From an uncultured Deinococcales bacterium (lineage in GTDB: Bacteria > Deinococcota > Deinococci > Deinococcales > JAAFIG01), in assembly GCA_964247135.1 (NCBI GenBank), contig CAXTTL010000087.1:1-17650 (forward strand): a DNA stretch of 17,650 bases. The letters run 5' to 3'. Of this stretch, positions 1-17,650 are shown piece after piece. Made by a program: the position numbers and the translations under genes. The notes beneath the pieces are model-generated. The model searched no databases, was not told the DNA's origin, and worked only from the letters and a program-made list of their open reading frames with translations. How positions within the stretch are numbered: the first letter of the stretch is position 1; each line of letters begins with the position of its first letter.

Positions 1-569
1 GCGTTGTAAATGTAGCCGCCAGCATTTTCGACGCGCACCAGTGGGCTGTAACTTTCATCACCTATCGAACCGGGCTTAAATTCGGTGGGCGGGAATGGAT
101 TTGTTTTTGGACCTGGTCTGATCACGTGTTCTGGGGCAAAATTGACTGTACCAGAATCAAAAGTCAGTGTGCCGTCCGTTCCGAGTCTGGCGTTGCGGGC
201 GCCCTTGCCGACGCTGGCATAGGTCAATTTTGCCGAATAATTGAGTCCCAAGGCATCCGCGTTGCCCTTATCGTTGGTGTCGGTCAGGACGTACCAAACG
301 TTTTTCTTGTCTTTGGTTTGACCACGGTACAAGGGCAGGGTGATCGTGCCTTTGGCTTCATCTATCGTGCCGGATTTCAGCAGTTGCACGGGTCCGACCA
401 ATTCTTTTTGGACGCTCGAGGGTGCGGGTCCAAAGTAGGTCAGTGGAATGTCCGCGCCAATGGACGGCGGTGCGGGTTGGGTGTCCCCGCCTTGGGCGAC
501 CACGATTCCAAGTGCGGCGAGCAAAATGACGGTTGCGAGGCTCGAGCTGGAGAATTTGAATCCTGGCAT
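1..569 (-). CDS. Secreted hypothetical protein, partial (runs off the left edge; absent from the ORF track)
   Basis: ATG at 569 preceded by AAGGA RBS. The frame is open to the edge: MPGFKFSSSSLATVILLAALGIVVAQGGDTQPAPPSIGADIPLTYFGPAPSSVQKELVGPVQLLKSGTIDEAKGTITLPLYRG...PFPPTEFKPGSIGDESYSPLVRVENAGGYIYNA. It has an N-terminal hydrophobic signal peptide. Confidence 0.85.
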   Translation of the reverse strand, partial: MPGFKFSSSSLATVILLAALGIVVAQGGDTQPAPPSIGADIPLTYFGPAPSSVQKELVGPVQLLKSGTIDEAKGTITLPLYRGQTKDKKNVWYVLTDTNDKGNADALGLNYSAKLTYASVGKGARNARLGTDGTLTFDSGTVNFAPEHVIRPGPKTNPFPPTEFKPGSIGDESYSPLVRVENAGGYIYN

Positions 570-633
570 GGTTTGTCCTTTACGTGTTCCGAACCTAGAG
601 GGCGAGCATGATTGCAGACAAGGGCGGTTTGGC

Positions 634-675
634 TTGAACCTTTGCGTCAGGAAATGCTTTAACGCAGAGGTTCAA
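634..675. other. 14-bp inverted repeat / hairpin between the SARP-like gene and the secreted-protein gene
   Basis: TTGAACCTTTGCGT (634-647) vs ACGCAGAGGTTCAA (662-675), one mismatch, 14-nt loop. No clear U-tract, so it could be a terminator, a stabiliser or an operator. Confidence 0.45.
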
Positions 676-731
676 ATCCTGCCTTTAGCTTGCCCCGAGG
701 TGTGGGTAATTTCTGGGTAATCAAATCTTGG

Positions 732-1724
732 TCACTCGAGCATTTTCTGGTATGCCTTACGAAGGGCTTGGGCTGCCGAGAATTCACCAGATTGCTCGAA
801 CAAATGAATCAATCTGGCGGTCGCCATTTCACTGAAGGCTTCAATCTCGAGGGCATCTTGGTAGATTTCGATGGCTCGTCTGGGTTCGTCTCGCTCGAGG
901 CTCTGGGCAAGCTTGAGGGCGGCACCCAGCGCCTGATCGGTCATGAGGGTGCGTTTGAGGTTCGCCCATTCACTGGTCGTGTACGGCATAAATTCGCCTC
1001 GGTATAACCCAAGTGCCCGCTCTAAACCCTGGGCATCTGGGTTTTTCAGCGCCTTGGCAAACTCGGCGGCATCGACCCAAAGCTCGAGTTGGGATGAGAG
1101 TTGGTAGCGTCTTTGTTCAAAAACAATTGGATTAAACTCGAGTTGTCCTGTGTGGATCAACGCGTTTCGGCTGCGCCGCACGACCACGCGAAAATACTCG
1201 CGGTTGCTGCGGGTGGCTTGTGCATTCCAGAGTTCGTCACAAATTCGGTCTTTGCTGGCGGCACCGTTCAGGGAAAGCCAAACGATCAGTTCGCTACACC
1301 TGGAAAACGGGAAGCGCACCGGTGTTCCAGACAACTTAATCTCGAGGTGTTTAAAGGTTCGCACCTCCAGCAAGCGATGTTGCTGGGTTGGGGAAGGGTT
1401 TTTTTTGAATTTTGGTTGGATTGTTTTGCTGGACAATACTTGGCTGAACGGGTTTGAAGCATTCAAAAACATGCCCTCGAATTCCAGTTCAGATTCGCGC
1501 CGATTTGTCAGGTTTGCCAGCAAACTGTTGATCTGCCAGGTGATTTCACCGATCATCTCGAGGGCTTGCTGCAAAATCAGTGCGACTTCCTCGAGTTGTT
1601 CTGTGCCCAGGGCAATTTGAACGCTTTGCAGGGCGTGAATGCTCGAAAGGGCGGTTTCGAGCTTTTGGATGATTCTCTCTTGGAGTGTGGTGTCCAAGGT
1701 TGTCTGGGACTGCACCGATTTCAT
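732..1724 (-). CDS. SARP/BTAD-domain transcriptional activator with an N-terminal coiled-coil extension (~330 aa)
   Basis: Winged-HTH signature (ELIVWLSLNGAASKDRICDELW...RVVVRRSRNAL) followed by BTAD signature (VDAAEF...ALGLYRGEFMP...EWA...ALEIEAFSE). Start reassigned to ATG 1724 (MKSVQ), which has GGAGG upstream. Confidence 0.8.
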   Translation of the reverse strand: MKSVQSQTTLDTTLQERIIQKLETALSSIHALQSVQIALGTEQLEEVALILQQALEMIGEITWQINSLLANLTNRRESELEFEGMFLNASNPFSQVLSSKTIQPKFKKNPSPTQQHRLLEVRTFKHLEIKLSGTPVRFPFSRCSELIVWLSLNGAASKDRICDELWNAQATRSNREYFRVVVRRSRNALIHTGQLEFNPIVFEQRRYQLSSQLELWVDAAEFAKALKNPDAQGLERALGLYRGEFMPYTTSEWANLKRTLMTDQALGAALKLAQSLERDEPRRAIEIYQDALEIEAFSEMATARLIHLFEQSGEFSAAQALRKAYQKMLE

Positions 1725-1829
1725 ACCGAAAACCTCCGAGTTGATTTTTAACGCACACTTGGGCATCGAGCGGCGCTCGAGTGGTAATTCGAGCAAAAGT
1801 TTTGAACAATTCACTTGGATCGGTAGATT

Positions 1830-1845
1830 AGTTAGTTAACTGACT
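1830..1845. promoter_or_regulatory. Putative TetR operator, copy 1 (AGTTAGTTAACTGACT), upstream of the SARP-like gene
   Basis: Near-perfect 16-bp palindrome. Related sites occur at 2543-2558 and 3773-3788. Confidence 0.6.
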
Positions 1846-1906
1846 TATATTTGATCCTCAGAATCCAAGTCAGCTATCGTTTTGTGCATGATGCCCGAGA
1901 CCGAAT

Positions 1907-2521
1907 TTAGTGTTTTGCAGTCATCATTTTTGGCTTGACATCCGCCACCGACTGCTCGAGCCAGCGTTCGATGCCGACCAATTGCTGATCGAGAAAATCC
2001 GCGTCGTTCATGGCGTTGGCAAGCGTATACGCGCCGTACAAACGAGCCAGAAATTCGGCGGCGAGGCGCTTGGGCTTTGGCTTTTTTAAGGCTTTAAATT
2101 GCGCCTCGGCAAACTCGAGGTACAGCCGCAACAAACCTGCGGCATCGTCGGCTTGTTGGTTTTGAATTTCCCGTAAGCCCTGCGCCAACGAGGCGTAAGG
2201 GCAACCGTGGGCGGTCAGCAATTCGCGGCTTCGAGACGAATCGTGAACCATTGACCGCAAACGCTCAAACGGGTCGGCTTGGCAACTTGCCAGCTCGAGT
2301 TCAACTTCTATCTCTTGGCGCCTGGCTCTGACCACGGCGGCAATCATGTCGTCTTTGCTGCGAAAATGATAATAGACATTGCCCAAGGGAACGTGGGCAG
2401 TCTCGGCAATCGTGGCGATGGTTGTGGGGGCAATGCCGCGCTCGTGAAACAGCCTCATGGCAGCCTCGAGCAGCCGCTCTCGCACGGGAGCTTGGGTTGG
2501 GTTGTTTTTGATTGAGGTCAT
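1907..2521 (-). CDS. TetR/AcrR family transcriptional regulator
   Basis: RERLLEAAMRLFHERGIAPTTIATIAETAHVPLGNVYYHFRSKDDM TetR HTH and a C-terminal GCP motif. ATG 2521 has a G-rich RBS; alternative start at 2548. Confidence 0.93.
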   Translation of the reverse strand: MTSIKNNPTQAPVRERLLEAAMRLFHERGIAPTTIATIAETAHVPLGNVYYHFRSKDDMIAAVVRARRQEIEVELELASCQADPFERLRSMVHDSSRSRELLTAHGCPYASLAQGLREIQNQQADDAAGLLRLYLEFAEAQFKALKKPKPKRLAAEFLARLYGAYTLANAMNDADFLDQQLVGIERWLEQSVADVKPKMMTAKH

Positions 2522-2540
2522 CGGTGTCCCCCCGAGTTTG

Positions 2541-2560
2541 TCAGTCATTTAACTGAATGA
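2541..2560. promoter_or_regulatory. Putative TetR operator, copy 2 (TCAGTCATTTAACTGAATGA), overlapping the predicted tetR transcription start
   Basis: 20-bp imperfect palindrome directly downstream of the -10 box. Confidence 0.65.
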
Positions 2561-2588
2561 GGTTAAATCCTGGTGGCTCGCCTGTCAA
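2560..2588 (-). promoter_or_regulatory. Sigma70-type promoter of tetR
   Basis: Minus strand reads TTGACA (2588-2583), 17 nt, TAACCT (2565-2560). Confidence 0.75.
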
Positions 2589-2591
2589 GAA

Positions 2592-2622
2592 TTCCCCCGA
2601 GTTTGAAATAAACCCGAGGGAA
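2592..2622 (-). terminator. Probable terminator hairpin after the DM13 gene
   Basis: TTCCCTCGGGTTT-ATTTC-AAACTCGGGGGAA: a 13-bp stem whose two mismatches are G-U pairs only on the minus strand. The U-tract is weak. Confidence 0.55.
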
Positions 2623-2638
2623 AATGTTTGAAGGAGGT

Positions 2639-3088
2639 TCAGTTCAGATTCGCACCCGCGAAGGTCACTTTGGCGACATCGCACCAAATGATCAGGCTTT
2701 TGAAATTCTCGAGTTTGGTGTTGGCAGGAATTTTGTATTGATAATTGCCCTTGAACGGTGCGCCGAGTTTGCCCAGGTCAACAAATTTTGCGCCCAGTTT
2801 TTTGACGGTTTTGCTGGGCACAGCGGCGGCGTACAGGTAGACGTGAAGATCGGGACCCGCCTCGGTTTTGAGGTTTTGAAGTCGCACCACACGGTTGCCA
2901 TCGCTTTGCTTCAGGATTTCGAGGCTGCCCGTGGTCGGTGCGCCGACGCTGAGGAGTTTGACGGTTTTCTCGAGCGTTCCTATGACATCAGATTTCATGG
3001 TTTGGGCGCCAACGTGGTTGGTGTTGATGGCAACCAAACCGAGGGCGGAAACGGCAATAACGGCGCTAACAATCTTTTGAATATTCAT
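2639..3088 (-). CDS. DM13 electron-transfer domain protein, exported (149 aa)
   Basis: DM13 motifs GPDLHVYL, VDLGKL, GNYQYKIP, SLIIWC...FAGA and a signal peptide. Start reassigned to ATG 3088 with AAGGAG RBS. Confidence 0.88.
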   Translation of the reverse strand: MNIQKIVSAVIAVSALGLVAINTNHVGAQTMKSDVIGTLEKTVKLLSVGAPTTGSLEILKQSDGNRVVRLQNLKTEAGPDLHVYLYAAAVPSKTVKKLGAKFVDLGKLGAPFKGNYQYKIPANTKLENFKSLIIWCDVAKVTFAGANLN

Positions 3089-3183
3089 GATGGACTCCTT
3101 TGATGACTCGAGCAAACTCGAGGGGCGTGGGGCGAGCAAACGGCGGCGGCACGGGTAAATTGAGTGCGTGTGACTCGAGATGG

Positions 3184-3750: not shown

Positions 3751-3772
3751 AACTTCCTCCAAGGTCAGTTTA

Positions 3773-3788
3773 AGTAAGCCAACTGACT
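3773..3788. promoter_or_regulatory. Putative TetR operator, copy 3 (AGTAAGCCAACTGACT), upstream of yceI-DM13
   Basis: Matches the consensus AGTNAGTTAACTGACT with an intact AACTGACT half-site, 23 nt upstream of the ATG. Confidence 0.55.
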
Positions 3789-3846
3789 GAATTACGGGGC
3801 AAATCAAAGAATGGTTCAATCCAAATCGCTGTCTAGACTCGAGTTC

Positions 3847-3886
3847 AAAAATAAAGAACACCTCGAGCTTTAAACTCGAGGTGTTC
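3847..3886 (-). terminator. Rho-independent terminator of the 5'-nucleotidase gene
   Basis: Perfect 12-bp stem GAACACCTCGAG / CTCGAGGTGTTC with a 7-nt loop, followed on the minus strand by TTTATTTTT, 17 nt after the stop. Confidence 0.85.
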
Positions 3887-3902
3887 CCAGAATTTGCGGT
3901 GC

Positions 3903-5549: not shown

Positions 5550-5665
5550 AAGTTCCTCCTCGAGAAATACGTTCGAGCTTCATTGTACTCGGTGAGGTCA
5601 TGGCTGGGTGATATTTGAAACTGGGTTTCTCGAGGGGTGTTCTGTAGCGGGTGACAGTTTGGGTG

Positions 5666-5694
5666 TTGCGCAAAAGAGGCTTGGTGGTTAGACT
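5666..5694 (+). promoter_or_regulatory. Putative pckA promoter
   Basis: TTGCGC (5666-5671), 17 nt, TAGACT (5689-5694). Confidence 0.55.
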
Positions 5695-5707
5695 GAACCA
5701 AGTATTC

Positions 5708-5743
5708 CTAACGAGCGTTTGTTTTAAATTTAACAAACGTTCG
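5708..5743. promoter_or_regulatory. Two tandem TetR/PaaR-type operator boxes in the pckA leader
   Basis: CTAACGAGCGTTTG (5708-5721) fits CNAACGNNCGTTNG exactly. TTAACAAACGTTCG (5730-5743) fits with two mismatches. The boxes are 22 bp apart. Confidence 0.55.
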
Positions 5744-5770
5744 TCATACCCTCAAGTTCTCGGAGGAAAC

Positions 5771-7387
5771 ATGACGACCATTCAACATCCTCAAGCCATT
5801 GACCAAACCATGCCTCAAACCTCAGACCTTCTGGGTCGTATGCACCCACGCACCCTTTACCGCAACCTCAGCACGCCCAGACTGATCGAGGAAGCCCTCA
5901 AGCGCTTTGAAGGTTGGCTGACCAAAGACGGCGCTTTTATCGCGCATACAGGCGTTCACACGGGGCGCAGCGCCCAAGACAAATTCGTGGTCAAAACTGA
6001 CTCGAGTGACAAGATTTGGTGGGACAGCCCCTACCAAAAACCGCTCTCAGAACAACACTTTCAGACACTGCTGGGCGATGTACTCGAGCATTTTGAGGCT
6101 CGAGATACTTTTGTGCTCGACGCCTTCGCGGGTGCGGACGCCAAATTTCGTCTTCAAGTTCAAGTCATTACCGAATTCGCCTGGCACAACCATTTCGCCC
6201 GCAACATGTTCATTCCCTGCAACCCAACACAGGCTCGAGATTTTGTCGGCGATTTTACGGTGATCTGTGCACCAAGTTTTAAAGCCGACCCCGCACGGCA
6301 CGGCTCGAGGACTGAAACCCAGATCGTGATTTCGTTCGAGCACGGGGTGGTTTTGATTGTCGGCACCAGTTATGCGGGCGAGATCAAGAAAAGCATTTTT
6401 ACGGTCTTAAACCATCTCCTGCCCGCCCAAAACGTCATGCCCATGCACTGCTCGGCAAATATTGGCGCATCAGGCGACGTGGCATTGTTTTTCGGCATGA
6501 GCGGCACGGGCAAAACCACGCTCTCCGCCGACCCGACACGGGGCTTGATTGGCGACGACGAACACGGCTGGAGTGACGCTGGCGTCTTCAACTTCGAGGG
6601 CGGCTGTTACGCCAAAGTGATCGGCTTAAACCAAAACGTAGAACCCGAAATTTTTCAAACCACCCGCACCCCAGGCACGGTGCTCGAGAATGTGGTCTTT
6701 GACCTCGAAACCAGGGAAATTGATTTAAACGATGCCAGCCTGACCGAAAATACGCGCAGCGCTTACCCGTTAAGCCAGATTTCGGGCGCGGTCATCCCAA
6801 GCCTCGGCGGGCATCCCAAAAACATTATTTTTCTGGCAGCCGATGCGTTCGGGGTTTTACCACCGATCTCGGGTTTAACGCCGGAGCAAGCGATGTATTA
6901 CTTTTTAAACGGGTACACCGCCAAGATCGCGGGCACCGAAAAAGGCATTCTTGAGCCGCAAGCCAGCTTTGAAACCGCCTTCGGCGCACCATTTTTGACC
7001 CGCGAGCCTCAAGTCTATGCCGAATTGTTGCGCAAAAAAATCGCGCAACACGGCACAAAAGTCTGGCTGGTCAACACGGGCTGGACGGGTGGCGCCGCCG
7101 GTGTGGGCAAACGAATTCCAATCGCTTACACCCGAGCGATGGTTCGTGCCGCGCTCGAGGGCAAACTCGAGGGCGTGGCAACGAGCAGACACCCAATTTT
7201 TGGCTTGCACGTGCCGATTAACGTTGAAGGCGTGCCAAGTGCCGTTTTGAATCCTCGAGATTCTTGGACGGATCAAGACGCTTACGACTTGCAAGCCCGA
7301 AAACTGGCGCAAATGTTCACCAAAAATTTTGTGCAATTTGAACCTGGGGCTTCAGATTTGCTTAACAATTCAAACCCGACATTTTAA
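5771..7387 (+). CDS. pckA: Phosphoenolpyruvate carboxykinase (ATP), 538 aa
   Basis: HTGRS, YAGEIKK, MHCSAN, P-loop FGMSGTGKTTLS, LIGDDEHGW, FNFEGGCYAK, ENTR and WLVNTGW. Start reassigned to ATG 5771 after GGAGG. Confidence 0.97.
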   Translation: MTTIQHPQAIDQTMPQTSDLLGRMHPRTLYRNLSTPRLIEEALKRFEGWLTKDGAFIAHTGVHTGRSAQDKFVVKTDSSDKIWWDSPYQKPLSEQHFQTLLGDVLEHFEARDTFVLDAFAGADAKFRLQVQVITEFAWHNHFARNMFIPCNPTQARDFVGDFTVICAPSFKADPARHGSRTETQIVISFEHGVVLIVGTSYAGEIKKSIFTVLNHLLPAQNVMPMHCSANIGASGDVALFFGMSGTGKTTLSADPTRGLIGDDEHGWSDAGVFNFEGGCYAKVIGLNQNVEPEIFQTTRTPGTVLENVVFDLETREIDLNDASLTENTRSAYPLSQISGAVIPSLGGHPKNIIFLAADAFGVLPPISGLTPEQAMYYFLNGYTAKIAGTEKGILEPQASFETAFGAPFLTREPQVYAELLRKKIAQHGTKVWLVNTGWTGGAAGVGKRIPIAYTRAMVRAALEGKLEGVATSRHPIFGLHVPINVEGVPSAVLNPRDSWTDQDAYDLQARKLAQMFTKNFVQFEPGASDLLNNSNPTF

Positions 7388-7541: not shown

Positions 7542-8762
7542 ATGACCGATAAAAATAACCTCGGTGGCGCCACTCGAATCATGATGCTCCCTGCCTTGTT
7601 GCTGGGCGTCGCCATCATGACATCGTGCAGTCAAAATATTTCCAAAGACCCAACAATCACAGACGCTCGAGCCGCAAAACCGCAAGTGCTGGTCAAATAC
7701 CAAATTGCCGAAAACAGCACCAGCGCCCGTGCAACAGGACGCAGCGCCTGGGCGACGGGGCGCAGTGCCTGGGCAACGGGGCGCAGCGCCTGGGCGACGG
7801 GCGATCCTGCAACGCTTGTCAATAACCTGGCGATTTGGACACAAATTCATTTGCAACAAGCCCAAACGCTCGCCCCGAACTGGGGTGCAGGCGTCAAGGT
7901 GGCTGTGATTGACACGGGCATTGACCTGAATCACCCAGCTTTTATGGGTCATCTGGCACCGAGCACCGATTGGAAAGACTTCATCGACGCTGATACCATC
8001 CCGCAAGAAGTCGCCGGTGGCGAGGCTTATGGACACGGCACAAGCGTTGCCAGCATCGTTTTGCAGGTGGCTCCAAAAGCACTCATCATGCCAATTCGGG
8101 TGCTTGACTCGAGCGGTACGGGCGACACCAATAAGATTGCCAGTGCGATTGACTGGGCAGCCCAGCACGGCGCGAAAGTGATTAATCTTTCGCTCGGCAC
8201 GGATGCCGCCAATTTTGATTGCGCGGTCCAAAAATCAGTGGCTTTGGCTATTCAAAATTACGGGACATTGATGGTTTTTGCGGCTGGAAACACGGGCGAC
8301 ACCAACATCAATTACCCTGCGATTACCGTCAAGTCCAATCCCAACAGCAACCCTGCCGTTAAAGCATGTCGCGCCGCGCCGTACAACTTGGTTCCTTCAC
8401 TCAATGCCAATGTCAATGTCGCCAGTATTTCGGTGGGCAGCGTCAACAGCCTCGATCAAAAATCGAATTTCTCGAGTTACGGTGAAAAACTCGAGATGGT
8501 TTCTCCAGGCGAAGACATTTACGGTCCTTATCCCGAAAATTCGGCGGCATCTTGGAGCGGAACCAGCATGTCAGCGCCACTCGTGACTGGGGCTTTGACC
8601 CTTGCCTTGGGTGAAAAACTAGGCTCTGGCATCAAAGTACAAGACTTACCCGATATTTTGATTGGCAAAACCGACAATGTTGATAGCCTAAACCCGAGCT
8701 TTGCCGGACAAATTGGCAAAGGGCGTTTGAACATCGAGAACTTTTTGAAATCCGTGTTTTAA
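7542..8762 (+). CDS. S8 family (subtilisin-like) serine peptidase, predicted lipoprotein, with a heptapeptide-repeat pro-region
   Basis: Catalytic motifs VAVIDTG, YGHGT, AAGN and SGTSMSAP; lipobox-like MTSC at residues 26-29. Confidence 0.93.
   Translation: MTDKNNLGGATRIMMLPALLLGVAIMTSCSQNISKDPTITDARAAKPQVLVKYQIAENSTSARATGRSAWATGRSAWATGRSAWATGDPATLVNNLAIWTQIHLQQAQTLAPNWGAGVKVAVIDTGIDLNHPAFMGHLAPSTDWKDFIDADTIPQEVAGGEAYGHGTSVASIVLQVAPKALIMPIRVLDSSGTGDTNKIASAIDWAAQHGAKVINLSLGTDAANFDCAVQKSVALAIQNYGTLMVFAAGNTGDTNINYPAITVKSNPNSNPAVKACRAAPYNLVPSLNANVNVASISVGSVNSLDQKSNFSSYGEKLEMVSPGEDIYGPYPENSAASWSGTSMSAPLVTGALTLALGEKLGSGIKVQDLPDILIGKTDNVDSLNPSFAGQIGKGRLNIENFLKSVF
7731..7802 (+). repeat. In-frame 21-bp tandem repeat x3.4 encoding (ATGRSAW)3-ATG
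   Basis: GCA ACA GGA CGC AGC GCC TGG / GCG ACG GGG CGC AGT GCC TGG / GCA ACG GGG CGC AGC GCC TGG / GCG ACG GGC. All differences are synonymous third-position changes. Confidence 0.95.
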
Positions 8763-8774
8763 ATTCAGTCTTTC

Positions 8775-8827
8775 AATTGACACCGGTCCCGAGAACGCAA
8801 GGCGTTTTCAGGATCGGTTTGTCAATT
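8775..8827 (+). terminator. Long hairpin after the S8 gene (terminator or RNA stabiliser)
   Basis: AATTGACACCGGTCCCGAGAACGC-AAG-GCGTTTTCAGGATCGGTTTGTCAATT pairs over about 23 bp with G-U pairs on the plus strand. No clean U-tract. Confidence 0.55.
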
Positions 8828-8900
8828 CGGAACATCTTCAAGGTTTTATTCTCAGTATGATAAAAGCCGCAGCGACCAGATTGGAGCTGTCAGCATTTTT

Positions 8901-11420
8901 ATGACCGAACCATCGACTCCACTCGAGACATCCCTCGGCGCCATTGCGCGTCTTGAGGGTCATGCCAAATTGAGTGCCTTAATCCAACTGGCAAAGGCGT
9001 TTCTCGAGGTTGGTTTGGAGCGCAATCCCAAGCTGGCATTGGAACTTGCCTTGGAAGCCAAAGATTTAGCCACCCAGTCAAGCAACATGGCTGCCTTGGC
9101 GCAAAGTCAAGCCATTCTGGGAACCTGTTATGTTGAGAGTGCAAGTTATGACGCAGCCCTTGAAGCGTTCAAGTCAGCCTTCAAACAATATGAACAACTT
9201 GAAGATCAGCGCGGCGCCACCAAAATGTTGCTCGAGCAAGGTCGAGTCTACAGAACGCTTGAACAGCACCAGAATGCTCGTGAGCAATTCGCCACCTCAC
9301 TGGAACTCAGTCGCCTTGCCAATGCCAAAGACCTTGAAGCAGATAACCTCAACGATTTGGCATCCATTTATGACTTGGAAGGCAACAACGTTCAAGCGAC
9401 CGATTTTATCAACCGTGCCCTCGAGATTCACAGCAGCTTAAAAGACGTGCGTGGACAGGTGAAATGCCTGATTAACCTTTCACTCTCACAACTTAAAATG
9501 ACCAACTATGACAAGGCGCTTGAACATGAATTACAAGCCTACAAACTCTTCCAAGAGCATCAGCTTAAAGACCCAGACCTTGAAGCGCGCTGCTTGATTG
9601 GTCTGGGCAATGTTTACGAAGAAATAGGCAACAACAAAACCGCCCTCGAGTTTTTCTCTGAAGCGGCGCAACTTGCGCAAAAGCATCAACTCAAAAACAC
9701 CCAAGTGTTGGCGACAGTCAACGCCGGCGAGGTGCAAAACAATTTAAAACACTACGATGCTGCAATTGAGGCTTTTAACCAGGCGCTCCGGATCGCCCGT
9801 GAGATCAGAATGCCTTCGGGTGCGCTTTACGCCTACCAGGGTTTGGGTAAAACCTTTAACAGTTTGGGCAAATACCTCGAGTCGCTCGAGGCGTATTTGC
9901 AATCCTTGGCGCTGGCTAAAAACATTGTTGACCGCGAAAGTGAAATCATTGCCCTGATCGGTTTGGGCGTCAACCAGCGCAGCCTTGGACGGTTCGAGAC
10001 CGCCACCGATTACTTTCAAGAAGCCCAAACTTTGGCACGCGCCACCAACCAGAAAAAATATGTTCAAGACAGCATTCAGGAGCTGGCTCAAACCTTTGAA
10101 ATGTCGGGCGATACAGGGAAAGCCTTGGCGTTTTACAAGGAATACCACCGTTTGGAAAAAGAAATTTTTAACTTGGAGTCCGAAAAGAAATCTCGAGATT
10201 TGGCGGTGCAATTTGACCTCGAGCGCAGCCAAACCCAAGCCGAGTTGTACCGTGTGCGCAGCGAGGCTTACAAGCAAAATGCCTTGGCGGCAGATCAAGC
10301 CAACCGTGCCAAATCCGAGTTTTTGTCGCGCATGAGTCACGAACTTCGCACGCCCTTGAATGCCATTTTGGGGTTCGCGCAACTCTTGGGCATCTCGAAC
10401 CTAAACCCCAATGACCGTGAGAGTGTCGAGCAAATCAGCCGAGCCGGCAGGCACTTGCTTGGACTGATCAACGAAGTGCTTGACATTGCCCGCATCGAAT
10501 CTGGACGAATTGACCTGTCCTTGGAAGCCATCAATCCGATGGAAATTGTGATTGAGAGCCTGGATTTGATCCGTCCGCTGGCGGTTCAATCGGGTATCGA
10601 ACTTTTAATCAACGAAGACCTGAGCAACCACCGATTGCGAATCACCGCCGACCGTCAACGTTTAAAACAAATCTTGATCAACCTGCTCTCGAACGCCGTG
10701 AAATACAACAAAAAAGCGGGTTCGGTCAGGGTCTGGCTCGAGTTAACGAGTGCCGAAAGATTGCGAATCAACATCACAGACACCGGCGTTGGCATCTCGG
10801 GCACCAAACTCGAGCAGTTGTTCACTCCTTTTGAGCGCCTCGGGGCGGAACAGAGCCGGATTGAGGGCAGCGGTATTGGTCTGGCGCTCTCCAAACGCCT
10901 GAGCGAGGCGATGTCTGGGCGAATTGGCGTCAGCAGCCGACCAAATGAGGGCAGCACTTTTTACATTGAACTGCCAGTCGCCTCAGAAATTTTGTCAACC
11001 GCCAACCCCCAACGCTCGGGCGAACCCGAGCTTGAAGCGCAGCCCATCAAACCCATTACGGTGGTTTACATCGAAGACAACCCTGCCAACATTCGACTGG
11101 TGCAATTGATTCTGGCAAACCGCCCACACGCGACCTTGTTGACCGCCACGGACGGTTTGAGCGGACTCGAGCTGGTTCGTGCGCAACAACCCAATGTGGT
11201 CCTGCTCGACTTGCACTTGCCCGATATTGAAGGCGGCGAGGTGCTAAACCGTTTGCAAGCCAACTCGAGCACCAAGCATATTCCGGTGGTGATTTTAAGC
11301 GCCGATGCCAACCCAGAACAAACCGCCAAGTTACTCGAGGCGGGCGCGAAGCAGTATTTGACCAAACCTTTTGATGTGCGTACATTCTTAAAAGTGCTCG
11401 ATGAAGTGCAGGGCACTTGA
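8901..11420 (+). CDS. Soluble hybrid sensor histidine kinase: TPR array - HisKA - HATPase_c - REC
   Basis: About 430 aa of TPR-like helical repeats (e.g. LGNVYEEIGNNKTALEFFSEA); H-box SEFLSRMSHELRTPLN; N-box NLLSNAVKYN; G1 DTGVGI; G2 GSGIGL; REC YIEDN...LLDLHLP...ILSA...LTKP. No obvious transmembrane segment. Confidence 0.95.
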   Translation: MTEPSTPLETSLGAIARLEGHAKLSALIQLAKAFLEVGLERNPKLALELALEAKDLATQSSNMAALAQSQAILGTCYVESASYDAALEAFKSAFKQYEQLEDQRGATKMLLEQGRVYRTLEQHQNAREQFATSLELSRLANAKDLEADNLNDLASIYDLEGNNVQATDFINRALEIHSSLKDVRGQVKCLINLSLSQLKMTNYDKALEHELQAYKLFQEHQLKDPDLEARCLIGLGNVYEEIGNNKTALEFFSEAAQLAQKHQLKNTQVLATVNAGEVQNNLKHYDAAIEAFNQALRIAREIRMPSGALYAYQGLGKTFNSLGKYLESLEAYLQSLALAKNIVDRESEIIALIGLGVNQRSLGRFETATDYFQEAQTLARATNQKKYVQDSIQELAQTFEMSGDTGKALAFYKEYHRLEKEIFNLESEKKSRDLAVQFDLERSQTQAELYRVRSEAYKQNALAADQANRAKSEFLSRMSHELRTPLNAILGFAQLLGISNLNPNDRESVEQISRAGRHLLGLINEVLDIARIESGRIDLSLEAINPMEIVIESLDLIRPLAVQSGIELLINEDLSNHRLRITADRQRLKQILINLLSNAVKYNKKAGSVRVWLELTSAERLRINITDTGVGISGTKLEQLFTPFERLGAEQSRIEGSGIGLALSKRLSEAMSGRIGVSSRPNEGSTFYIELPVASEILSTANPQRSGEPELEAQPIKPITVVYIEDNPANIRLVQLILANRPHATLLTATDGLSGLELVRAQQPNVVLLDLHLPDIEGGEVLNRLQANSSTKHIPVVILSADANPEQTAKLLEAGAKQYLTKPFDVRTFLKVLDEVQGT

Positions 11421-11479
11421 GCAGCCTTGAAGTGCAGGACACTCGAGCAGCCTTGAAGTGCAGGACACTCGAGCAGCCT
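11402..11479 (+). repeat. 26-bp tandem repeat x3 duplicating the 3' end of the kinase gene
   Basis: TGAAGTGCAGGGCACTTGAGCAGCCT (11402-11427, contains the stop), then TGAAGTGCAGGACACTCGAGCAGCCT twice (11428-11453, 11454-11479). Confidence 0.95.
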
Positions 11480-11530
11480 CGAGTCATGAAACTGTAAGAA
11501 TCACGGCGTTAAAGTAAGTACAAATTCGGT

Positions 11531-11569
11531 CAGTGAAGGTCAGGGACAGTAAAGGTCAGGGACAATGAA
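11531..11569 (+). repeat. 16-bp tandem duplication of the RBS region of the HD-GYP gene
   Basis: CAGTGAAGGTCAGGGA / CAGTAAAGGTCAGGGA / CAATGAA; the last partial unit contains the start ATG. Confidence 0.8.
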
Positions 11570-12665
11570 ACTCGAATCGCAACAAGCCAAAATTCTGATC
11601 GTCGATGACCAAGAAGCCAACATCTTGTTGCTCAGACGCTTGTTGCAAGAATTGGGTGGCTACGACCAAATCGCCAGCACCACCAACCCTCGAGAAACCT
11701 TTAACCTGCTGACCGACTTCGAACCCGACATTATTTTACTTGACCTCGCCATGCCCGAACTTGACGGTTTTGGCGTGATGGAACAACTCGGCATGATTCT
11801 GCCCAAAGACAGTTTTTTACCAATCATTGTCCTGACCGCCGACATTTCCGCCCTGACCAAACAACGCGCCCTGCAAGCTGGCGCCAGGGATTTCCTGACC
11901 AAACCGTTTGACAGCACCGAAGCCCTCTTGCGCATCCGCAACCTGCTCGAGACACGTTCGTTGCACCTTAAACTCGAGGCGCGGGTTCTGGAGCGCACCC
12001 ACGCCCTGCAAGAAGCCCACACCGAACTTTTTAACCGCGCCCTCGATCTCCAAGCCGCTCAAATCGAGGTGCTCGAGCGCCTCGGAGCCTGCGCCGAATT
12101 CCGCGACGATGCCACAGGACAACACACGCAGCGTGTGGGACACCTGGCAACCCAGGTGGCTCGGGTATTGGGCTTGCCAAATACCCAAATCGAATTGATT
12201 TCCAAAGCGGCACCTTTGCACGACGTTGGAAAAATCGGAATTTCGGATGCGATCTTGCTCAAACCGACGCGTCTAGACCCAATCGAACGCGCCCAGGTTG
12301 AACGCCACACGACCATCGGTGCCCATATTTTAAGACATGGACATTCGGAATTGATTCGCATGGCAGAAGAAATTGCCTTAACCCACCACGAACGATTTGA
12401 CGGTACGGGCTATCCCAACGGCTTGGCGGGCGAAGCGATTCCAATTTCTGGACGCATTGTTGCGATTGTGGACGTTTACGATGCCCTGACCCACGAACGC
12501 CCGTACAAACACGCCTGGAGTCACGAAGACGCCATGATTGAGATTAAAAATCAATCTGGCAAGAGTTTTGATCCAGCAGTGGTGGCGGCTTTTGTAGCCT
12601 TGATCGAGCAAAATGTAATTCTGCCCAATCAGGTACAACTCGAGTACGAACCCGAAAGTCGTTAA
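11565..12665 (+). CDS. Response regulator with HD-GYP cyclic-dinucleotide phosphodiesterase domain (RpfG-like)
   Basis: REC domain (ILIVDD, LLDLAMP, VLTA, LTKP); HD-GYP motifs HTQRV, LHDVGKIG, THHERFDGTGYP, DVYDAL, RPYK. Confidence 0.95.
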   Translation: MKLESQQAKILIVDDQEANILLLRRLLQELGGYDQIASTTNPRETFNLLTDFEPDIILLDLAMPELDGFGVMEQLGMILPKDSFLPIIVLTADISALTKQRALQAGARDFLTKPFDSTEALLRIRNLLETRSLHLKLEARVLERTHALQEAHTELFNRALDLQAAQIEVLERLGACAEFRDDATGQHTQRVGHLATQVARVLGLPNTQIELISKAAPLHDVGKIGISDAILLKPTRLDPIERAQVERHTTIGAHILRHGHSELIRMAEEIALTHHERFDGTGYPNGLAGEAIPISGRIVAIVDVYDALTHERPYKHAWSHEDAMIEIKNQSGKSFDPAVVAAFVALIEQNVILPNQVQLEYEPESR

Positions 12666-13812: not shown

Positions 13813-15705
13813 ATGTTCAGAAATCGTTTTGTCACTCGAGCGCTCGTTCCATTCGCCTTGCTCGCCTTCATCGGCGTGACCCAAGCCCAGAGCCTCAACA
13901 CGCTCGAGATTGACCGTTTTGTGGCGGACGCCATGAAACGCCATAATGTGCCTGGCGTGGGTTTGGCTGTCGTGATGGACGGCAAGATTGTTTACACCAA
14001 AGGTTACGGCGTGCGTGACACCAAAACGAATGCTGCCGTGAATGCCGATACGCTTTTTGCGATTGGTTCGGTCAGCAAATCGTTTACCTCGCTGGGCGCG
14101 ATGCAGCTTGTGGGTGCAGGCAAGCTCAGTTTGAGCACCAAAGTGAACGCGATATTGCCAAACCTAAAATTTTCCGACCCAGGCAAAGGTGCAACAGTCA
14201 CACTGCAAAACGTGCTCTCGCACACCAGCGGCATGAATCGGGCGGATGACTTGTGGTATTTCGATAAAACCATCAAAACCCGTGAGGACATGCTTGGCAC
14301 GGTGGCAAAAATCCCGTTTAACCAACCCGTCGGCAAGACCTGGCAGTACTGCAATCAAAATTTTGTGATCGCGGGCGCGATGCTCGAGAAAATCACCGGC
14401 AACACTTGGGAGAATTACACCAAGCAAAATATTTTCGCGCCGCTCGGCATGAAACGGAGCGTATTTGAAAACGCAGATGCGATAAAAGATGGCAATTACG
14501 CCCAAGGGTTTCAGTTGGGCTTGAATGGTGCTGATCCAATGCCCGCTTTTGACCGCATGGTGATCGCCGGTCCAGCCGGTTCGATCATCTCGAGCGCGTC
14601 GGATATGGCACAGTACGCCGCGTTTCAACTCTCAAACGGCACATGGAACGGCAAGCAAATTGTCTCAAAAAATGCGCTCGAAACCATGCACAGCCGCCAA
14701 ATCGAGATTTCAGATGTTCCATCACACATCCCAGGTTTGGCATTCCCAAGTTACGGCTTGGCGTGGTTGAACGAAGAATACCGTGGTGTCAAGATCGTCG
14801 AACACGGCGGCAACATCGATGGTTTCTCGGCAGAGGTGCAACTTGTACCATCCAAAGGTTTGGGCATCGTGATCCTCAGCAACCTGAACGGTGCGAATGA
14901 GTTTACGACCGAGCTTCGTTTGGGCATCACCGAACGTGCGCTGGGCATGACCCCGCTCAGTCAATTTCAACCAAGTGCGCTCAGCGCTCAACTCGAGGCG
15001 GCAAAAACCTTCAAACCAGACCTTGGGGTTTTAAAGTCGCTCGAGGGAAAATACGCGCTTATCACAGGTGACAGCGCAGTGCTCAGCGTAAAAGATGGTC
15101 AGTTGAGCATTACCCAAGGTGGTCAAACCTTTCCAATGATCGCCGCCAGCAAAACAGAATTTATCGTCAATGTCTTGGGTTCGCTGATCTCACTCGAGTT
15201 TCAAATCGACCCCAGCGGTTTGGTTTGGGTCTACCAGGATGGTCAGGTGGTGGGCGTTCGCGTACCTACCTCGAGCACCACACCTGCCAGCAGCGAATTT
15301 AAAAATGCTGGAAATCAGTACAGTTTCACGCTCCCAGCGAATTTAAGCTTGGCGCAGCAAACCCCGAATTTCAGCGTGTTTCAATCGGCAAATCCTGCCG
15401 CCACCGTGATTGTGGCAACCACCAAAACGCAAGCCGACCTCGAGCAAAGCGTCAAGGTGGTGGTGGATCAGTTTGACCCCAGTTTCAAGCAAAAACCAGA
15501 CAACGTTCGGGAATTACCAGCCATCAACGGTGTGGTTTGGACGCAGTATTTATATCAATTGCCTAACGATCAAATTTTGGTGGCGCTGGCAGCCGTCAAG
15601 GGCGACACGGCTTTTGTCGTGATCGTGCAACTGAAAACCGCCGATGTGGGCGCGTTCACGCCGAGCATCAATGGGTTGCTCTCGAGTTTTAAGATTCTGA
15701 TTTAA
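13813..15705 (+). CDS. Secreted serine hydrolase, beta-lactamase/AmpC-like family, with C-terminal extension domains
   Basis: Signal peptide (AQA); FAIGSVSK (SxxK), LSHTSG, WQYCN (YxN), HGG; AGGAG RBS; about 250 extra C-terminal residues. Confidence 0.9.
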   Translation: MFRNRFVTRALVPFALLAFIGVTQAQSLNTLEIDRFVADAMKRHNVPGVGLAVVMDGKIVYTKGYGVRDTKTNAAVNADTLFAIGSVSKSFTSLGAMQLVGAGKLSLSTKVNAILPNLKFSDPGKGATVTLQNVLSHTSGMNRADDLWYFDKTIKTREDMLGTVAKIPFNQPVGKTWQYCNQNFVIAGAMLEKITGNTWENYTKQNIFAPLGMKRSVFENADAIKDGNYAQGFQLGLNGADPMPAFDRMVIAGPAGSIISSASDMAQYAAFQLSNGTWNGKQIVSKNALETMHSRQIEISDVPSHIPGLAFPSYGLAWLNEEYRGVKIVEHGGNIDGFSAEVQLVPSKGLGIVILSNLNGANEFTTELRLGITERALGMTPLSQFQPSALSAQLEAAKTFKPDLGVLKSLEGKYALITGDSAVLSVKDGQLSITQGGQTFPMIAASKTEFIVNVLGSLISLEFQIDPSGLVWVYQDGQVVGVRVPTSSTTPASSEFKNAGNQYSFTLPANLSLAQQTPNFSVFQSANPAATVIVATTKTQADLEQSVKVVVDQFDPSFKQKPDNVRELPAINGVVWTQYLYQLPNDQILVALAAVKGDTAFVVIVQLKTADVGAFTPSINGLLSSFKILI

Positions 15706-15756
15706 ACCGTCCACAATAGAATTTTCTCGAGTCTCGAGGTCATCCGAATCCCAGTT

Positions 15757-15788
15757 TCACCCACCCAAAATCCGAGTGGGTGATTTTT
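15757..15788 (+). terminator. Rho-independent terminator between convergent genes
   Basis: TCACCCAC-N11-GTGGGTGA followed by TTTTT. Confidence 0.6.
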
Positions 15789-16323
15789 ATGGTTTCGCCA
15801 AATCCATCGTCCAATATGGGCTGTTCGGGCTTGCATTTGGGAACAGTGCCGCCACGCCGATTTCGCTAAAATTGGCGTTCATGATGTTGGCACAGTGCCC
15901 CGCACTGTTCAACCAGGCGTCCATCACAATTTGGGTGGTGGACTGCCCCCAGGCGATGTTCTCGCCCCAAGTGTTGAACGTATAACCCTGGATTTTCATT
16001 CTGTCCCCAGGACTCGAGCCGTTGGAACCCGTGTGATCAAAAAAATTGTGGTCGATCATGTCTTGATTGTGCGCTCGAGCCGCCGCCTCGAGTTTGCTGT
16101 TCCAAGCCAAAGCTGGCGCGGCGGGATAATTTTTGGTTCCACAAGTCCGTGCTGAAGCTCGGGCGGCGTTGACTTGATTGAGAATATCTTGGTTGAAAGC
16201 GTTTAAGGTTGTGGTTGGCGGTGTGGTCGCGCCAGGTTTGGAAATCATGGGGTTGCTCGTGCCGCAAGCGGTCAAGCTGAGCAGCAAAACAATCGCAACC
16301 TGAAATCTCGGGTGTCCAGACAT
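15787..16323 (-). CDS. CAP (SCP/YkwD-like) domain lipoprotein
   Basis: Lipobox LTAC; VNAARA...CG, AARAHNQDM, FFDHTG, GENIAWG, WLNSAGHCANIM. Confidence 0.92.
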   Translation of the reverse strand: MSGHPRFQVAIVLLLSLTACGTSNPMISKPGATTPPTTTLNAFNQDILNQVNAARASARTCGTKNYPAAPALAWNSKLEAAARAHNQDMIDHNFFDHTGSNGSSPGDRMKIQGYTFNTWGENIAWGQSTTQIVMDAWLNSAGHCANIMNANFSEIGVAALFPNASPNSPYWTMDLAKP

Positions 16324-16444
16324 ACCCTAGAGTTTACGAAAGACTATGGGTTTTTGAGGGTCAAAATTGTGTTGAGAATGAAGCTCGAGCCAATAAATCA
16401 GCGCCAACTTTTCAAAGTCTTGATCTCTTGCCACAATAAACATC

Positions 16445-16678
16445 ATGAACAGTGTTTTGCAAAATTCAATTGCTCAACTATCAACCAACGAACAACTCGA
16501 GTTGGCACAATGGATTATTGGCAATGTTCAGGCGCAACAAGAATGAAACATCCCAGATTTAACACCGCTTGAACTTCGTTAAGTATTGCAACGCGCCAGC
16601 GATCACCCTCGAGATGCTAAACCCCCAGAGCAGTTGTTTGATGCCATCAAAACCAACCGTGAAATTCGGAATGCTTGA
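16445..16678 (+). pseudogene. Decayed addiction-module antitoxin (TIGR02574-like)
   Basis: Reads MNSVLQNSIAQLSTNEQLELAQWIIGNVQAQQE*NIPDLTPLELR*VLQRASDHPRDAKPPEQLFDAIKTNREIRNA*, with in-frame stops at 16544 and 16580. Size and pattern resemble this antitoxin family (recognised by eye). Confidence 0.6.
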
Positions 16679-16855
16679 TGTATTTCTTGGTTCTTGATGA
16701 CAAATTCAAGACCAATTGCTTCACATCAGTCAGAATTTCAGTGAAGCTCGAGGGCAACAATTTGTTCGGGTTCTCAAAAATGGCTTTGATACATCGTTCG
16801 CGTGGTGGCTTGTTACCATGTTCGCAGTGACCCTGAAACTTGGTTGCGGCAATAA
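16671..16855 (+). pseudogene. Decayed RelE/ParE family toxin
   Basis: ATG overlaps the antitoxin end by 8 nt. Reads MLDVFLGS**QIQDQLLHISQNFSEARGQQFVRVLKNGFD, then in a shifted frame YIVRVVACYHVRSDPETWLRQ*, a typical ParE C-terminus. The central part is missing. Confidence 0.6.
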
Positions 16856-16917
16856 CACTTCACTCGAGCGTCACCCTTTGCACACATCTGCAAAATATAA
16901 ACCACTAGAATAGATTC

Positions 16918-17650
16918 ATGTCGCTCGAGTTGATTTTCATGCTGGTCTTGGCGTATTTGGTGGGCAGTTTGCCGTTTGGGTACTGGTTGGCGCGTGCCAA
17001 AGGACTCGAACCGCTGCGCAGCGCCTCTTACAACATCGGTTTTGAAAATGCCATGCGCGTCTTGGGCGAGGACACGGTGATCGTGTCGTTCATGCTGGAT
17101 TTTTTAAAGGGCGCATTGGTGGTTGGTCTGGTCGCGCCGTTTGATGGCAACGAACCTGCCCTGCTGGCGGGTTTGGCGGGTTATGTGGGGCATCTGTACC
17201 CCCCCGCGTTTTATTTTTCCAAAGCCTATCCGGTGCGCGGTCGCGGTAACGTTTTTATTTTGGGTATGCTGGCGGGCTTGGCAGTTTTCACCGCGTTTCC
17301 ATTTTGGATGGCGGTTTTGCCGATCATCGTTTGGGCGGCGCTGCTGGGCTGGACGCGATATGTGGCACTCTCGAGCTTGGCGGCGGGAGCAACCCTGGCG
17401 CTCGAAGTGCTGCTCTCCCCTTCTGACGCCTGGGGACGGTTTGCCGTGCTGGTTTTGCTGGCGGCAGTGATTTGGCGTTTCAAGGAAAACTTGGGTCGTG
17501 TGCTGGACAAGACCGAACCCAAAGTCGGCGAGGTGCATCATATCGCCGGCGAGCGCAAAGACCAAATTGTCAGTGCGTTTATCATTCATCCGCTTTCACC
17601 TGACGCGGTGTTCATGACCGAACGCGCAAAATGGCTCAAACCGCTGTATG
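16918..17650 (+). CDS. Divergent PlsY-like (glycerol-3-phosphate acyltransferase family) membrane domain fused to a further soluble domain, partial (absent from the ORF track)
   Basis: Open frame to the right edge: MSLELIFMLVLAYLVGSLPFGYWL...SYNIGFENAMRVLG...LDFLKG...VGHLYP...RGRG...TRYVALSSL...RFKENLGRVLDKTEPKVGE, continuing into ...SAFIIHPLSPD... Confidence 0.88.
   Translation, partial: MSLELIFMLVLAYLVGSLPFGYWLARAKGLEPLRSASYNIGFENAMRVLGEDTVIVSFMLDFLKGALVVGLVAPFDGNEPALLAGLAGYVGHLYPPAFYFSKAYPVRGRGNVFILGMLAGLAVFTAFPFWMAVLPIIVWAALLGWTRYVALSSLAAGATLALEVLLSPSDAWGRFAVLVLLAAVIWRFKENLGRVLDKTEPKVGEVHHIAGERKDQIVSAFIIHPLSPDAVFMTERAKWLKPLY

Follow-up and report, generated by a model that had tools for sequence, protein, structure and literature searches.

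The hexamer CTCGAG is very probably a genuine highly iterated palindrome (HIP), held by a fixation bias at the DNA level, in the 17,650-base stretch analyzed here (the window) and in the genome of the uncultured Deinococcales bacterium to which the stretch belongs. The window contains 101 copies, one per 175 bp. In 200 dinucleotide-preserving shuffles of the window the mean is 3.04 copies (standard deviation (sd) 1.68, maximum 8), and none of the shuffles reaches 101. Inside 15 open reading frames (ORFs) on both strands lie 85 of the copies, at least two in each ORF, and all three frames are used: 56 copies are read as CTC-GAG, 14 as xCT-CGA-G and 15 as xxC-TCG-AGx. The other 16 are found outside ORFs, at a density of 8.9/kb there against 5.4/kb within ORFs. 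GAGCTC and GGCC are both at zero in the window. An earlier note on this DNA had estimated about 100 copies, one per ~175 bp, on both strands, in three frames and in intergenic DNA, and had pointed to clusters in 3105-3180 and 15726-15738 and to a copy inside a terminator stem. The count bears out each of these observations, and the hairpin in question carries a copy in each arm. The window ORFs are ordinary genes, among them those for a TetR regulator, DM13, YceI, 5'-nucleotidase, phosphoenolpyruvate (PEP) carboxykinase, subtilase, a TPR histidine kinase, HD-GYP, OsmC, a beta-lactamase family protein, CAP and PlsY.

The window is contig C87 of assembly G000, which comprises 5,091,702 bases in 386 contigs with 52.7% G+C and an estimated completeness of 84%. 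The assembly contains 33,925 CTCGAG, one per 150 bp or 6,660 per Mb, and ~4% of its bases lie in the motif. Zero-, first- and second-order models give observed/expected ratios (O/E) of 24.8, 35.2 and 14.4. No hexamer is more over-represented than CTCGAG; the next ranks are its own overlaps, and the next palindrome has an O/E of 3.7. After the motif and its overlaps come A-tract words (TTTTTG/CAAAAA 5.8, AAAACC/GGTTTT 5.4 and TTTTGA/TCAAAA 5.2). With Markov orders 3 and 4 the O/E falls to 3.45 and 1.24. We do not accept these high-order nulls as valid here, since sub-words of the motif itself dominate their parameters; 62% of the 54,610 TCGA in the genome sit within CTCGAG. The excess is seen on all 297 contigs of at least 5 kb (mean 6.70/kb, sd 1.21, range 2.56-10.53; 5.72/kb on the window contig), and none of 825 5-kb segments has fewer than eight copies. 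Genes were called with a crude ORF caller that greedily picks the longest ORFs of at least 100 aa, giving 4,557 genes over 86% of the assembly. The density is 6.51/kb in this coding fraction and 7.50/kb in the remainder. In 2,372 strict intergenic gaps (331 kb) it is 8.54/kb with an O/E of 40, and convergent 3' gaps have 9.17/kb and divergent gaps 7.32/kb.

The genic copies are distributed over the three frames as 17,462, 4,590 and 6,649. When codons are shuffled within each gene so that the protein, its dipeptides and the codon usage of the gene are kept, 4,034 genic copies are expected (10 shuffles, sd 29) and 28,701 are observed, an O/E of 7.1 overall and of 5.6, 13.3 and 11.5 by frame. A codon-order shuffle gives an O/E of 17. 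CTC accounts for 24.5% of Leu codons and GAG for 46.2% of Glu codons. The mirror word GAGCTC, built from the same two codons, is a clean internal control: the synonymous shuffle predicts ~1,650 copies and the genome has none. The genome-wide check under Markov and codon-shuffled nulls that the earlier note called for therefore upholds the excess. The note had allowed that the excess might disappear once codon and dipeptide usage were controlled, or might be confined to one contig; it survives the synonymous shuffle, is present on every contig of at least 5 kb and recurs in 19 separately assembled species. The note had also proposed a test for depletion of the one-mismatch neighbors of CTCGAG, and these are not depleted (O/E 0.5-1.7). 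A fixation bias need not deplete such neighbors, and the result does not weigh against the finding. A longer repeat or a mobile element was also considered and rejected, as the flanks are near random, with at most 0.18 bit per position.

Comparison with a congener shows how the word is maintained. For this, 350 kb of G005 were compared with G000, of which 252 kb align at 85.0% identity. Of 3,427 instances of CTCGAG in the alignment 82.1% are retained, compared with 44.8% for hexamers in general, and the motif ranks first among the 982 words with at least 200 instances. Copies that are not kept face one-transition variants, and these fall evenly on each of the three half-site positions (100, 100 and 76), which indicates that the whole word is favored and not one base of it. 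The third base of codons with an unchanged amino acid was then compared inside and outside the motif. It is unchanged in 93.7% of CTC codons inside the motif and 64.5% outside, and the corresponding values are 93.1% and 72.1% for GAG, 95.0% and 70.6% for TCG, and 89.1% and 62.4% for CGA. Synonymous positions within CTCGAG change ~5 times more slowly than those outside. CTCGAG is thus a bare 6-bp word, accumulated by point substitution throughout resident DNA. Judging from the neighbor ratios, the motif is ~20 times commoner than any one-step neighbor, which would correspond to a scaled advantage of about 3.

The bias outweighs synonymous drift and even changes protein sequences. Leu-Glu is the most over-used dipeptide of the G000 proteome, with 22,739 occurrences against 9,456 expected (O/E 2.40), while Glu-Leu stays at 1.02; 76.8% of Leu-Glu is encoded by CTCGAG. 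The PEP carboxykinase gene of the window is a clear example. Its nine CTCGAG encode four Leu-Glu, three x-Arg-x and two x-Ser-Ser/Arg. The 15 orthologs from the family average 6.1 Leu-Glu and 7.9 motifs, compared with 1.9 and 0.4 in 80 distant homologs. At the motif sites, LE of the family corresponds mostly to LD, LA or LN in the distant homologs, and GSR to GTR or GCR. The motif also enters genes for structured RNA: eight of 66 tRNA gene predictions hold ten CTCGAG, where ~1.4 would be expected by composition and 34 at genome density. The motif-bearing predictions include two tRNA-Glu, Asp, Val, Leu (two copies) and Thr (e.g. C14:11589-11740 and C157:3282-3938); two of the eight, a 95-nt 'Arg' and a 'Gln', look doubtful. 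The 37-nt CRISPR repeat of G000 holds one CTCGAG as well.

The survey of relatives covers 301 genomes of the class, with genome sizes of the relatives rounded; it includes one unpublished genome (G266), on which no claim is based. Genomes of the family are mostly incomplete (57-94%), so that 'not found' is not 'absent', and kin are not independent of each other. All 19 species of the family, in five genera and with genomes of ~5 Mb and ~52% G+C, carry 4.3-6.8 CTCGAG/kb. GAGCTC is at 25 copies or fewer in 16 of them and at 114, 161 and 568 in the other three. Genera g13-g15 have 2-3.4 CTCGAG/kb. In a Thermus-like genus (31 species, ~2.1-2.4 Mb) CTCGAG is roughly equal to GAGCTC, and in a Deinococcus-like genus (99 sampled species, 1.9-6.7 Mb) it is depleted to ~0.03-0.15/kb. 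From the genus sizes, the TaqI_C hits of M.TaqI size in the small-genome genus and the lack of RecC matches, we infer that the surveyed genera are Deinococcus, Thermus, Meiothermus and relatives, within Deinococcales. Marker proteins of G000 lend this placement little help: FtsZ is nearest to protein clusters labelled Chloroflexota, which is at odds with it, ribosomal protein L2 and RpoB were not found, and EF-Tu is truncated by the end of a contig. In a scan of genome contigs that excluded relatives, PEP carboxykinase matched only distant phyla, at no more than 59% identity.

Genome G254 lies outside the CTCGAG-rich family, in the Deinococcus-like family f3. The 38.9 kb sampled from it have 7.35 CTCGAG/kb (O/E 28), no GAGCTC and 34 avoided palindromes. 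The gene order of G254 follows that of G197 and G198 and not that of the CTCGAG-rich family. G198 carries the same genus label (g36), both genomes have ~50% G+C, and G198 has 0.30/kb, with an O/E of 1.3 and a synonymous-shuffle O/E of 1.04. A weaker excess is found in G115, G087 and G197, where the synonymous-shuffle O/E is 4.4, 3.2 and 3.5 in small samples of 28-80 kb. In these samples non-coding DNA has 2.2-3.8 CTCGAG/kb and the Leu-Glu O/E is 1.6-2.1, which shows that the weaker excess is at the DNA level too. GAGCTC copies compare with synonymous-shuffle expectations as 2/120 in G005, 0/10 in G254, 0/31 in G019, 3/20 in G115, 2/15 in G087 and 14/33 in G197; G198, which has no CTCGAG excess, has 20 against 17 expected. 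Every sampled lineage with an excess of CTCGAG is also short of GAGCTC, by linkage or by mere shared ancestry.

Palindromic hexamers are widely avoided in G000. Among the 64 of them, 36 have an O/E below 0.2 and 19 below 0.05, compared with 10.7% and 1.5% of non-palindromes. In 5.09 Mb there are 0 copies of GAGCTC, 1 of GGGCCC, 3 of CGGCCG, 4 of AGGCCT, 5 of CGTACG and 7 of GGATCC, and the rarest tetramers are GGCC (O/E 0.02, 380 copies) and CTAG (0.07). The same avoidance is seen in G005 and G254, not in G198. G000 also bears a heavy restriction load; in other transformable groups, such a load and the avoidance of palindromes go along with uptake sequences and with HIP1. The restriction systems identified fit the avoided palindromes, and none of them matches CTCGAG. 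In G000 an NgoPII-type system with its C5 methyltransferase matches the avoided GGCC, and an Eco29kI-type system with its C5 methyltransferase matches the avoided CCGCGG (11 copies). A further enzyme, of the alpha class, resembles M.CbeI, whose specificity we take to be GGCC. It scores 310 bits to PDB entry 7M6B, given as M.CbeI in PMC8616854. A SacI-family endonuclease (364 aa; 29.7 bits against a cut-off of 19.3) and a D12 adenine methyltransferase (277 aa) are encoded together at C320:1061-2985. In G005 and G011 the counterparts share 51-72% identity with the endonuclease and 75-83% with the methyltransferase, and the pair is likely behind the total absence of GAGCTC. An EcoRV-type system is present in G015 and MutH/Sau3AI-like ones in G012 and G017. 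Type I restriction operons at G011:C1:2187937-2192142 (L337) and on G005:C54 (L338) carry an extra NucS_C + DUF5655 gene between hsdM and hsdS.

The spacing of the sites departs from random at short range. Gaps between sites average 148 bp in G000. Relative to the geometric expectation, gaps below 20 bp are at 0.24-0.54, those of 50-200 bp at 1.15-1.29 and those of 300-800 bp at 0.70-0.82; together, the shortage of close pairs and the surplus of 50-200 bp gaps suggest a saturating benefit. Counts are under-dispersed in 100-300 bp intervals (variance/mean 0.80-0.83), for which an exclusion zone of ~15 bp would suffice as an explanation, and over-dispersed from 1 kb up (1.1-1.7). A spacing of 7 bp occurs 87 times in the genome and one of 6 bp never, because the latter would create GAGCTC. 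No helical phasing at 10-11 bp is found among the sites; the top spectral periods are 31 bp and ~2-4 bp, and both are weak. The intergenic flanks are weakly symmetric, with A-3/T+3 at 0.47, A-2/T+2 at 0.36-0.39 and G-1/C+1 at 0.34-0.35. G is scarce at -3, in part because GAGCTC is banned. Symmetric flanks are as expected of a dimeric reader.

Sixteen gaps exceed 1.5 kb, mostly in low-G+C stretches, and 13 stretches totaling 64.5 kb have at most 2 CTCGAG/kb. Found in them are an insertion sequence (DDE_3 + HTH), genes for type IV secretion (TraG/VirB4-like, TrbC) and for sugar use (an operon), a ParB-like gene and genes with no assigned function. Since G000 is a binned assembly that may have lost atypical contigs, the motif-poor share is a lower bound. 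The genes of a recently acquired MvaI/BcnI restriction pair (38-40% G+C) have zero and one CTCGAG. No clear prophage is seen in the low-density islands or on contig C25, and a C25 protein with a phage-family (PHROG) match has no relative among viral contigs. A scan of viral contigs for three close motifs returned at least 131 stretches, mainly from high-G+C phages that also carry GAGCTC. The CRISPR array itself (C221:6962-8177 and the start of C9) has 15 unique spacers, with two spacers duplicated. No match to the array was found in phage and plasmid collections. One spacer matches G000 itself at C25:927-961 (35/37 nt). C25 has a normal motif density, and the matched stretch lies in a 172-aa ORF without a family match; spacers may therefore come from kin.

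CTCGAG agrees with the HIP class (sensu Elhai 2015) in being a hyper-abundant outlier, frame-independent, a bare word and conserved between relatives. Like HIP1 of cyanobacteria (GCGATCGC), as described in PMC4390886, PMC5861425 and PMC13756078, it is a bare hyper-abundant palindrome that spreads through substitution, lies in non-coding DNA and in every reading frame, and is conserved and shared by a lineage, in genomes that avoid other palindromes. It is a 6-mer and not an 8-mer, belongs to another phylum and has no matching conserved methyltransferase that we could find. The HIP1 analogy drawn in the earlier note thus stands for frame independence, for coding and intergenic occurrence, for spread by substitution, for conservation and for sharing within the lineage; for the methyltransferase link it has no support in gene content. 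CTCGAG is also denser, with 6,660 per Mb against 300-2,700 per Mb given for HIP1 in PMC4390886. HIP1 proper is a different word, and its core CGATCG has 47 copies in G000 (O/E 0.03). CTCGAG is also like the alternative cyanobacterial HIPs (GGCGCC in Calothrix PCC 7103, GCSGC and RCCGGY), short palindromes of 5-6 nt that stand as a single outlier word in the place of HIP1, GGCGCC with an O/E of ~15 or more (PMC4390886). Those words have 75-100% G+C and are each tied to a predicted methyltransferase in single strains, according to the same source, whereas CTCGAG has 67% G+C, is family-wide and has none found. In the literature on CTCGAG, iterated palindromes, deinococci and Meiothermus we found no published report of the CTCGAG excess.

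Other known systems share some of its properties. The DNA uptake sequence (DUS) of Neisseria and the uptake signal sequence (USS) of Pasteurellaceae are in excess in genes and gaps, distort peptides, are shared within families, are scarce in recent imports, are spaced more evenly than random and form inverted pairs in terminators. CTCGAG resembles them in its excess in genes and gaps, in peptide distortion, family-wide occurrence, scarcity in imports and spacing, and in the inverted pair in a hairpin. Chi is likewise a short over-represented word that could mark own DNA; unlike CTCGAG, which is self-complementary, it is asymmetric and strand-skewed, and RecC was found in 0 of the 31 genomes searched (AddAB was not searched). 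CTCGAG is also the word read by XhoI and PaeR7I. A restriction target should be avoided, as CTCGAG is in the Deinococcus-like genus, and in the family it is enriched 25-fold.

Among the possible mechanisms we tentatively prefer a tag of kin DNA that spreads by biased uptake or recombination, a reading that is possible rather than probable. DNA uptake was one of the alternatives to methylation in the earlier note, beside a binding site for chromosome organization. A symmetric, dimeric protein would read CTCGAG on duplex DNA, and the word would serve as a tag of own or kin DNA. Kin fragments bearing the motif would be preferentially taken up or recombined during natural transformation, and motif-bearing alleles would replace motif-less ones by molecular drive, with or without added selection. 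Density would climb to about one site per 100-150 bp, where the benefit saturates, and no methyltransferase would be needed. We prefer this reading because it is the sole documented route to genome-wide, protein-distorting, lineage-shared motifs without per-site function, and because it predicts scarcity in imports and saturation at short range. It also requires no methyltransferase, and work on HIP1 is moving in the same direction: HIP1 is reported to raise transformation efficiency and has been proposed as an uptake sequence (PMC13756078). In a more specific form, CTCGAG may be a methylation-independent 'own-DNA watermark' of Deinococcales, whose symmetric reader would gate uptake, recombination or protection. 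One family and G254 would have it at full strength and Meiothermus-like genera at a third of that; in Deinococcus it would have been lost and avoidance would have taken its place. We regard this form as conceivable and short of likely.

Several points weigh against uptake or recombination as the cause. Every mechanism proposed here is deduced from sequence statistics. DUS and USS are non-palindromic, 9-12 nt long and present at ~1/kb, with an uptake bias shown experimentally; CTCGAG is palindromic, 6 nt long and present at 6.7/kb. To our knowledge, uptake in Thermus and Deinococcus is not sequence-specific. ComEC (PF03772) is found in G000, in 17 of 18 family genomes and in all 12-13 outgroup genomes; equally present in relatives without the excess, it discriminates nothing. 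No uptake receptor or motif-binding protein was identified. CTCGAG occurs in two of the 15 unique CRISPR spacers (~520 nt), where ~0.09 would be expected, which hints that invading DNA carries the motif too and would fit an intracellular process better. Finally, the effect of HIP1 on transformation depends on methylation according to PMC13756078, and no matching methyltransferase is found here.

A methylation-linked HIP, as suggested in the earlier note, is an alternative that we consider unlikely. An orphan methyltransferase, perhaps of an unrecognized family or specific to a genus, would modify CTCGAG or its TCGA core; the marks would be used in strand-directed repair, in the control of replication or for protection, with the sites kept by selection or by a repair ratchet. 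The spacing of GATC in Dam/MutH bacteria is similar to the mean of 148 bp for CTCGAG, and the presence of the motif in spacers would fit a mark that is useful to invaders too. Every cyanobacterial HIP genome has a matching methyltransferase according to PMC4390886 (Elhai 2015). Orphan CTCGAG methyltransferases are described elsewhere, for example in Nocardia, with the motif clustering at the origin (PMC4752239), and a hot-spring epigenome preprint gives methylated CTCGAG and TCGA as common to one host-phage subnetwork (10.64898/2026.06.24.734251).

Gene content in the family does not follow this pattern. Searches with PF01555, PF00145, PF02384, PF07669, PF12950, PF02086 and an XhoI-linked query found no conserved CTCGAG methyltransferase (Vsr, MT-A70, EcoRI-type enzymes and unknown folds were not searched). 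PF01555 is not found at E<=1e-8 in 3 of 18 family genomes, the closed genome G011 among them. An orphan-looking beta-class methyltransferase of G000 (C36:20010-21059) was rejected as a candidate, being present in 5 of 18 family genomes. D12 methyltransferases, in 17 of 18, were rejected as well, because they resolve into the SacI-like partner and the M.CbeI-like (GGCC) enzyme. C5 enzymes occur in four of five sampled family genomes, G008 having none, and those of G000 are tied to NgoPII or Eco29kI partners. Of 18 family genomes, six have hits to TaqI_C and two to MutH. The XhoI, TaqI-like, MutH and RecC routes were all rejected as not conserved in the family. G011 has 4.6 CTCGAG/kb and yet no beta-class methyltransferase. 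Its methyltransferases are three type I HsdM/HsdS sets, one type ISP enzyme, two D12 enzymes (SacI-linked and GGCC-type) and one C5 enzyme, the last in a recently acquired island of 34-42% G+C and encoded by a gene without the motif.

The XhoI family (PF04555) is found in 4 of the 301 class genomes; it was not found in G000, in any of ten further family genomes sampled or in any of the 99 genomes of the depleted genus. In family f4, XhoI-family genes adjoin a beta-class methyltransferase (G021:C1:75199-76793, L345; also G085, G140 and G105). The G021 enzyme is ~25% identical to the beta-class enzymes of G000. Its homologs (62-74% identity) are present in 23 of 31 genomes of the Thermus-like genus, 8 of 14 of f4, 1 of 22 of g13, 0 of 10 of the family and 0 of 111 of f3, a distribution unrelated or even opposite to the CTCGAG excess. 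In the 23 Thermus-like genomes this methyltransferase occurs without XhoI and looks like a conserved orphan. Genomes with the full XhoI pair do not avoid CTCGAG (1.7/kb in G021). The earlier note had suggested a methyltransferase of XhoI/PaeR7I- or TaqI-type specificity and a check of the motif's distribution against orphan methyltransferases; gene content lends the link no support, and the XhoI-linked enzyme is common in a genus without the excess.

An abundant, sequence-specific nucleoid, chromosome-organizing or nuclease-shielding protein is another explanation to which we give a low probability. Here about one site per 150 bp would be selected to coat own DNA, and site-less foreign DNA would stay bare. 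A palindrome with weak symmetric flanks to +/-3 is compatible with such a protein, as are the similar densities in genes and gaps and the lower density in mobile DNA. The exclusion below ~20 bp, with mild repulsion to ~60 bp, resembles a footprint, and ~34,000 sites are on the order of the copy number of abundant nucleoid proteins. Known nucleoid proteins, however, are loosely specific. No candidate was found, the sites lack phasing with the helix, and at 1 kb and above their counts are over-dispersed and not regular.

Less probable again is a methylation-free, motif-directed mismatch correction with a logic like that of very-short-patch (VSP) repair. A nuclease or glycosylase would repair one-mismatch CTCGAG to the motif, so that losses are blocked and gains fixed without benefit to the cell. 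This would account for the synonymous conservation and for spread into all resident DNA, including tRNA genes and the CRISPR repeat, and a bias confined to the steps into and out of the motif could leave neighbors undepleted. Dcm/Vsr repair in Escherichia coli is the one known repair route that raises a palindromic methylation site (CCWGG), with a small effect at one base. The CTCGAG excess is 25-fold, the changes are even over positions and mostly ordinary transitions, unlike single-base patch repair, and C5 enzymes are not universal. Mismatch correction also does not predict the deficit of close pairs, and no enzyme for it was identified (the Vsr family was not searched). A by-product of codon or dipeptide usage, or an assembly or library artefact such as XhoI linkers, is practically out of the question: CTC and GAG are common codons and the fourth-order Markov O/E is near one, but the synonymous O/E of 7.1, the intergenic O/E of 40, the lack of GAGCTC and the recurrence on 297 of 297 contigs of at least 5 kb and in 19 species refute it. 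Some other process takes the remaining probability.

The features of the window are listed in Table 1. A subtilase and a TPR/HD-GYP signaling module occupy 7542-12665 of the window, and paralogous stretches lie on contigs C5, C39, C78, C316 and C375. A similar pair of Peptidase_S8 and TPR-HD_5 proteins is encoded in a motif-poor stretch, C5:27501-32500.

Table 1. Positions of CTCGAG groups and of genes and signals that carry them in the window
Feature	Position	Strand	Details
CTCGAG, 101 copies	1..17650	.	count; 85 in 15 ORFs, 16 outside
Three CTCGAG (3107, 3117, 3174) within 73 bp	3107..3179	.	5' end of DM13 ORF and gap before YceI-like gene
Terminator-like hairpin, 16 pairs then T run, 3' of 5'-nucleotidase gene	3854..3888	-	one CTCGAG per arm (3862, 3875)
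ATP-dependent PEP carboxykinase gene	5651..7387	+	Pfam PEPCK_ATP, E 1.8e-206
CTCGAG pair 7 bp apart (15726, 15733)	15726..15738	.	convergent gap, beta-lactamase-family gene / CAP-domain gene
Five CTCGAG (16384, 16496, 16608, 16747, 16863)	16384..16868	.	590-bp stretch without called ORF

The function of highly iterated palindromes has been open for thirty years and has been studied in one phylum; CTCGAG provides an independent case with another word at a higher density. The trait is graded across one order and has opposite states within one genus label (G254 and G198), a natural contrast for finding the gene responsible, and some of the genera with the weaker excess are, we infer, cultivable. 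CTCGAG also shows how far a drive at the DNA level reshapes a proteome, with Leu-Glu raised 2.4-fold overall and about three times more frequent in the PEP carboxykinase orthologs, and with the motif present even in tRNA genes and a CRISPR repeat. Such genomes will bias composition-based binning, gene finders and codon models, and XhoI would cut them to pieces of ~150 bp if the sites are unmodified. If the word is indeed a watermark of own DNA, the HIP principle would have been invented a second time, independently, and HIPs would need no cognate methyltransferase.

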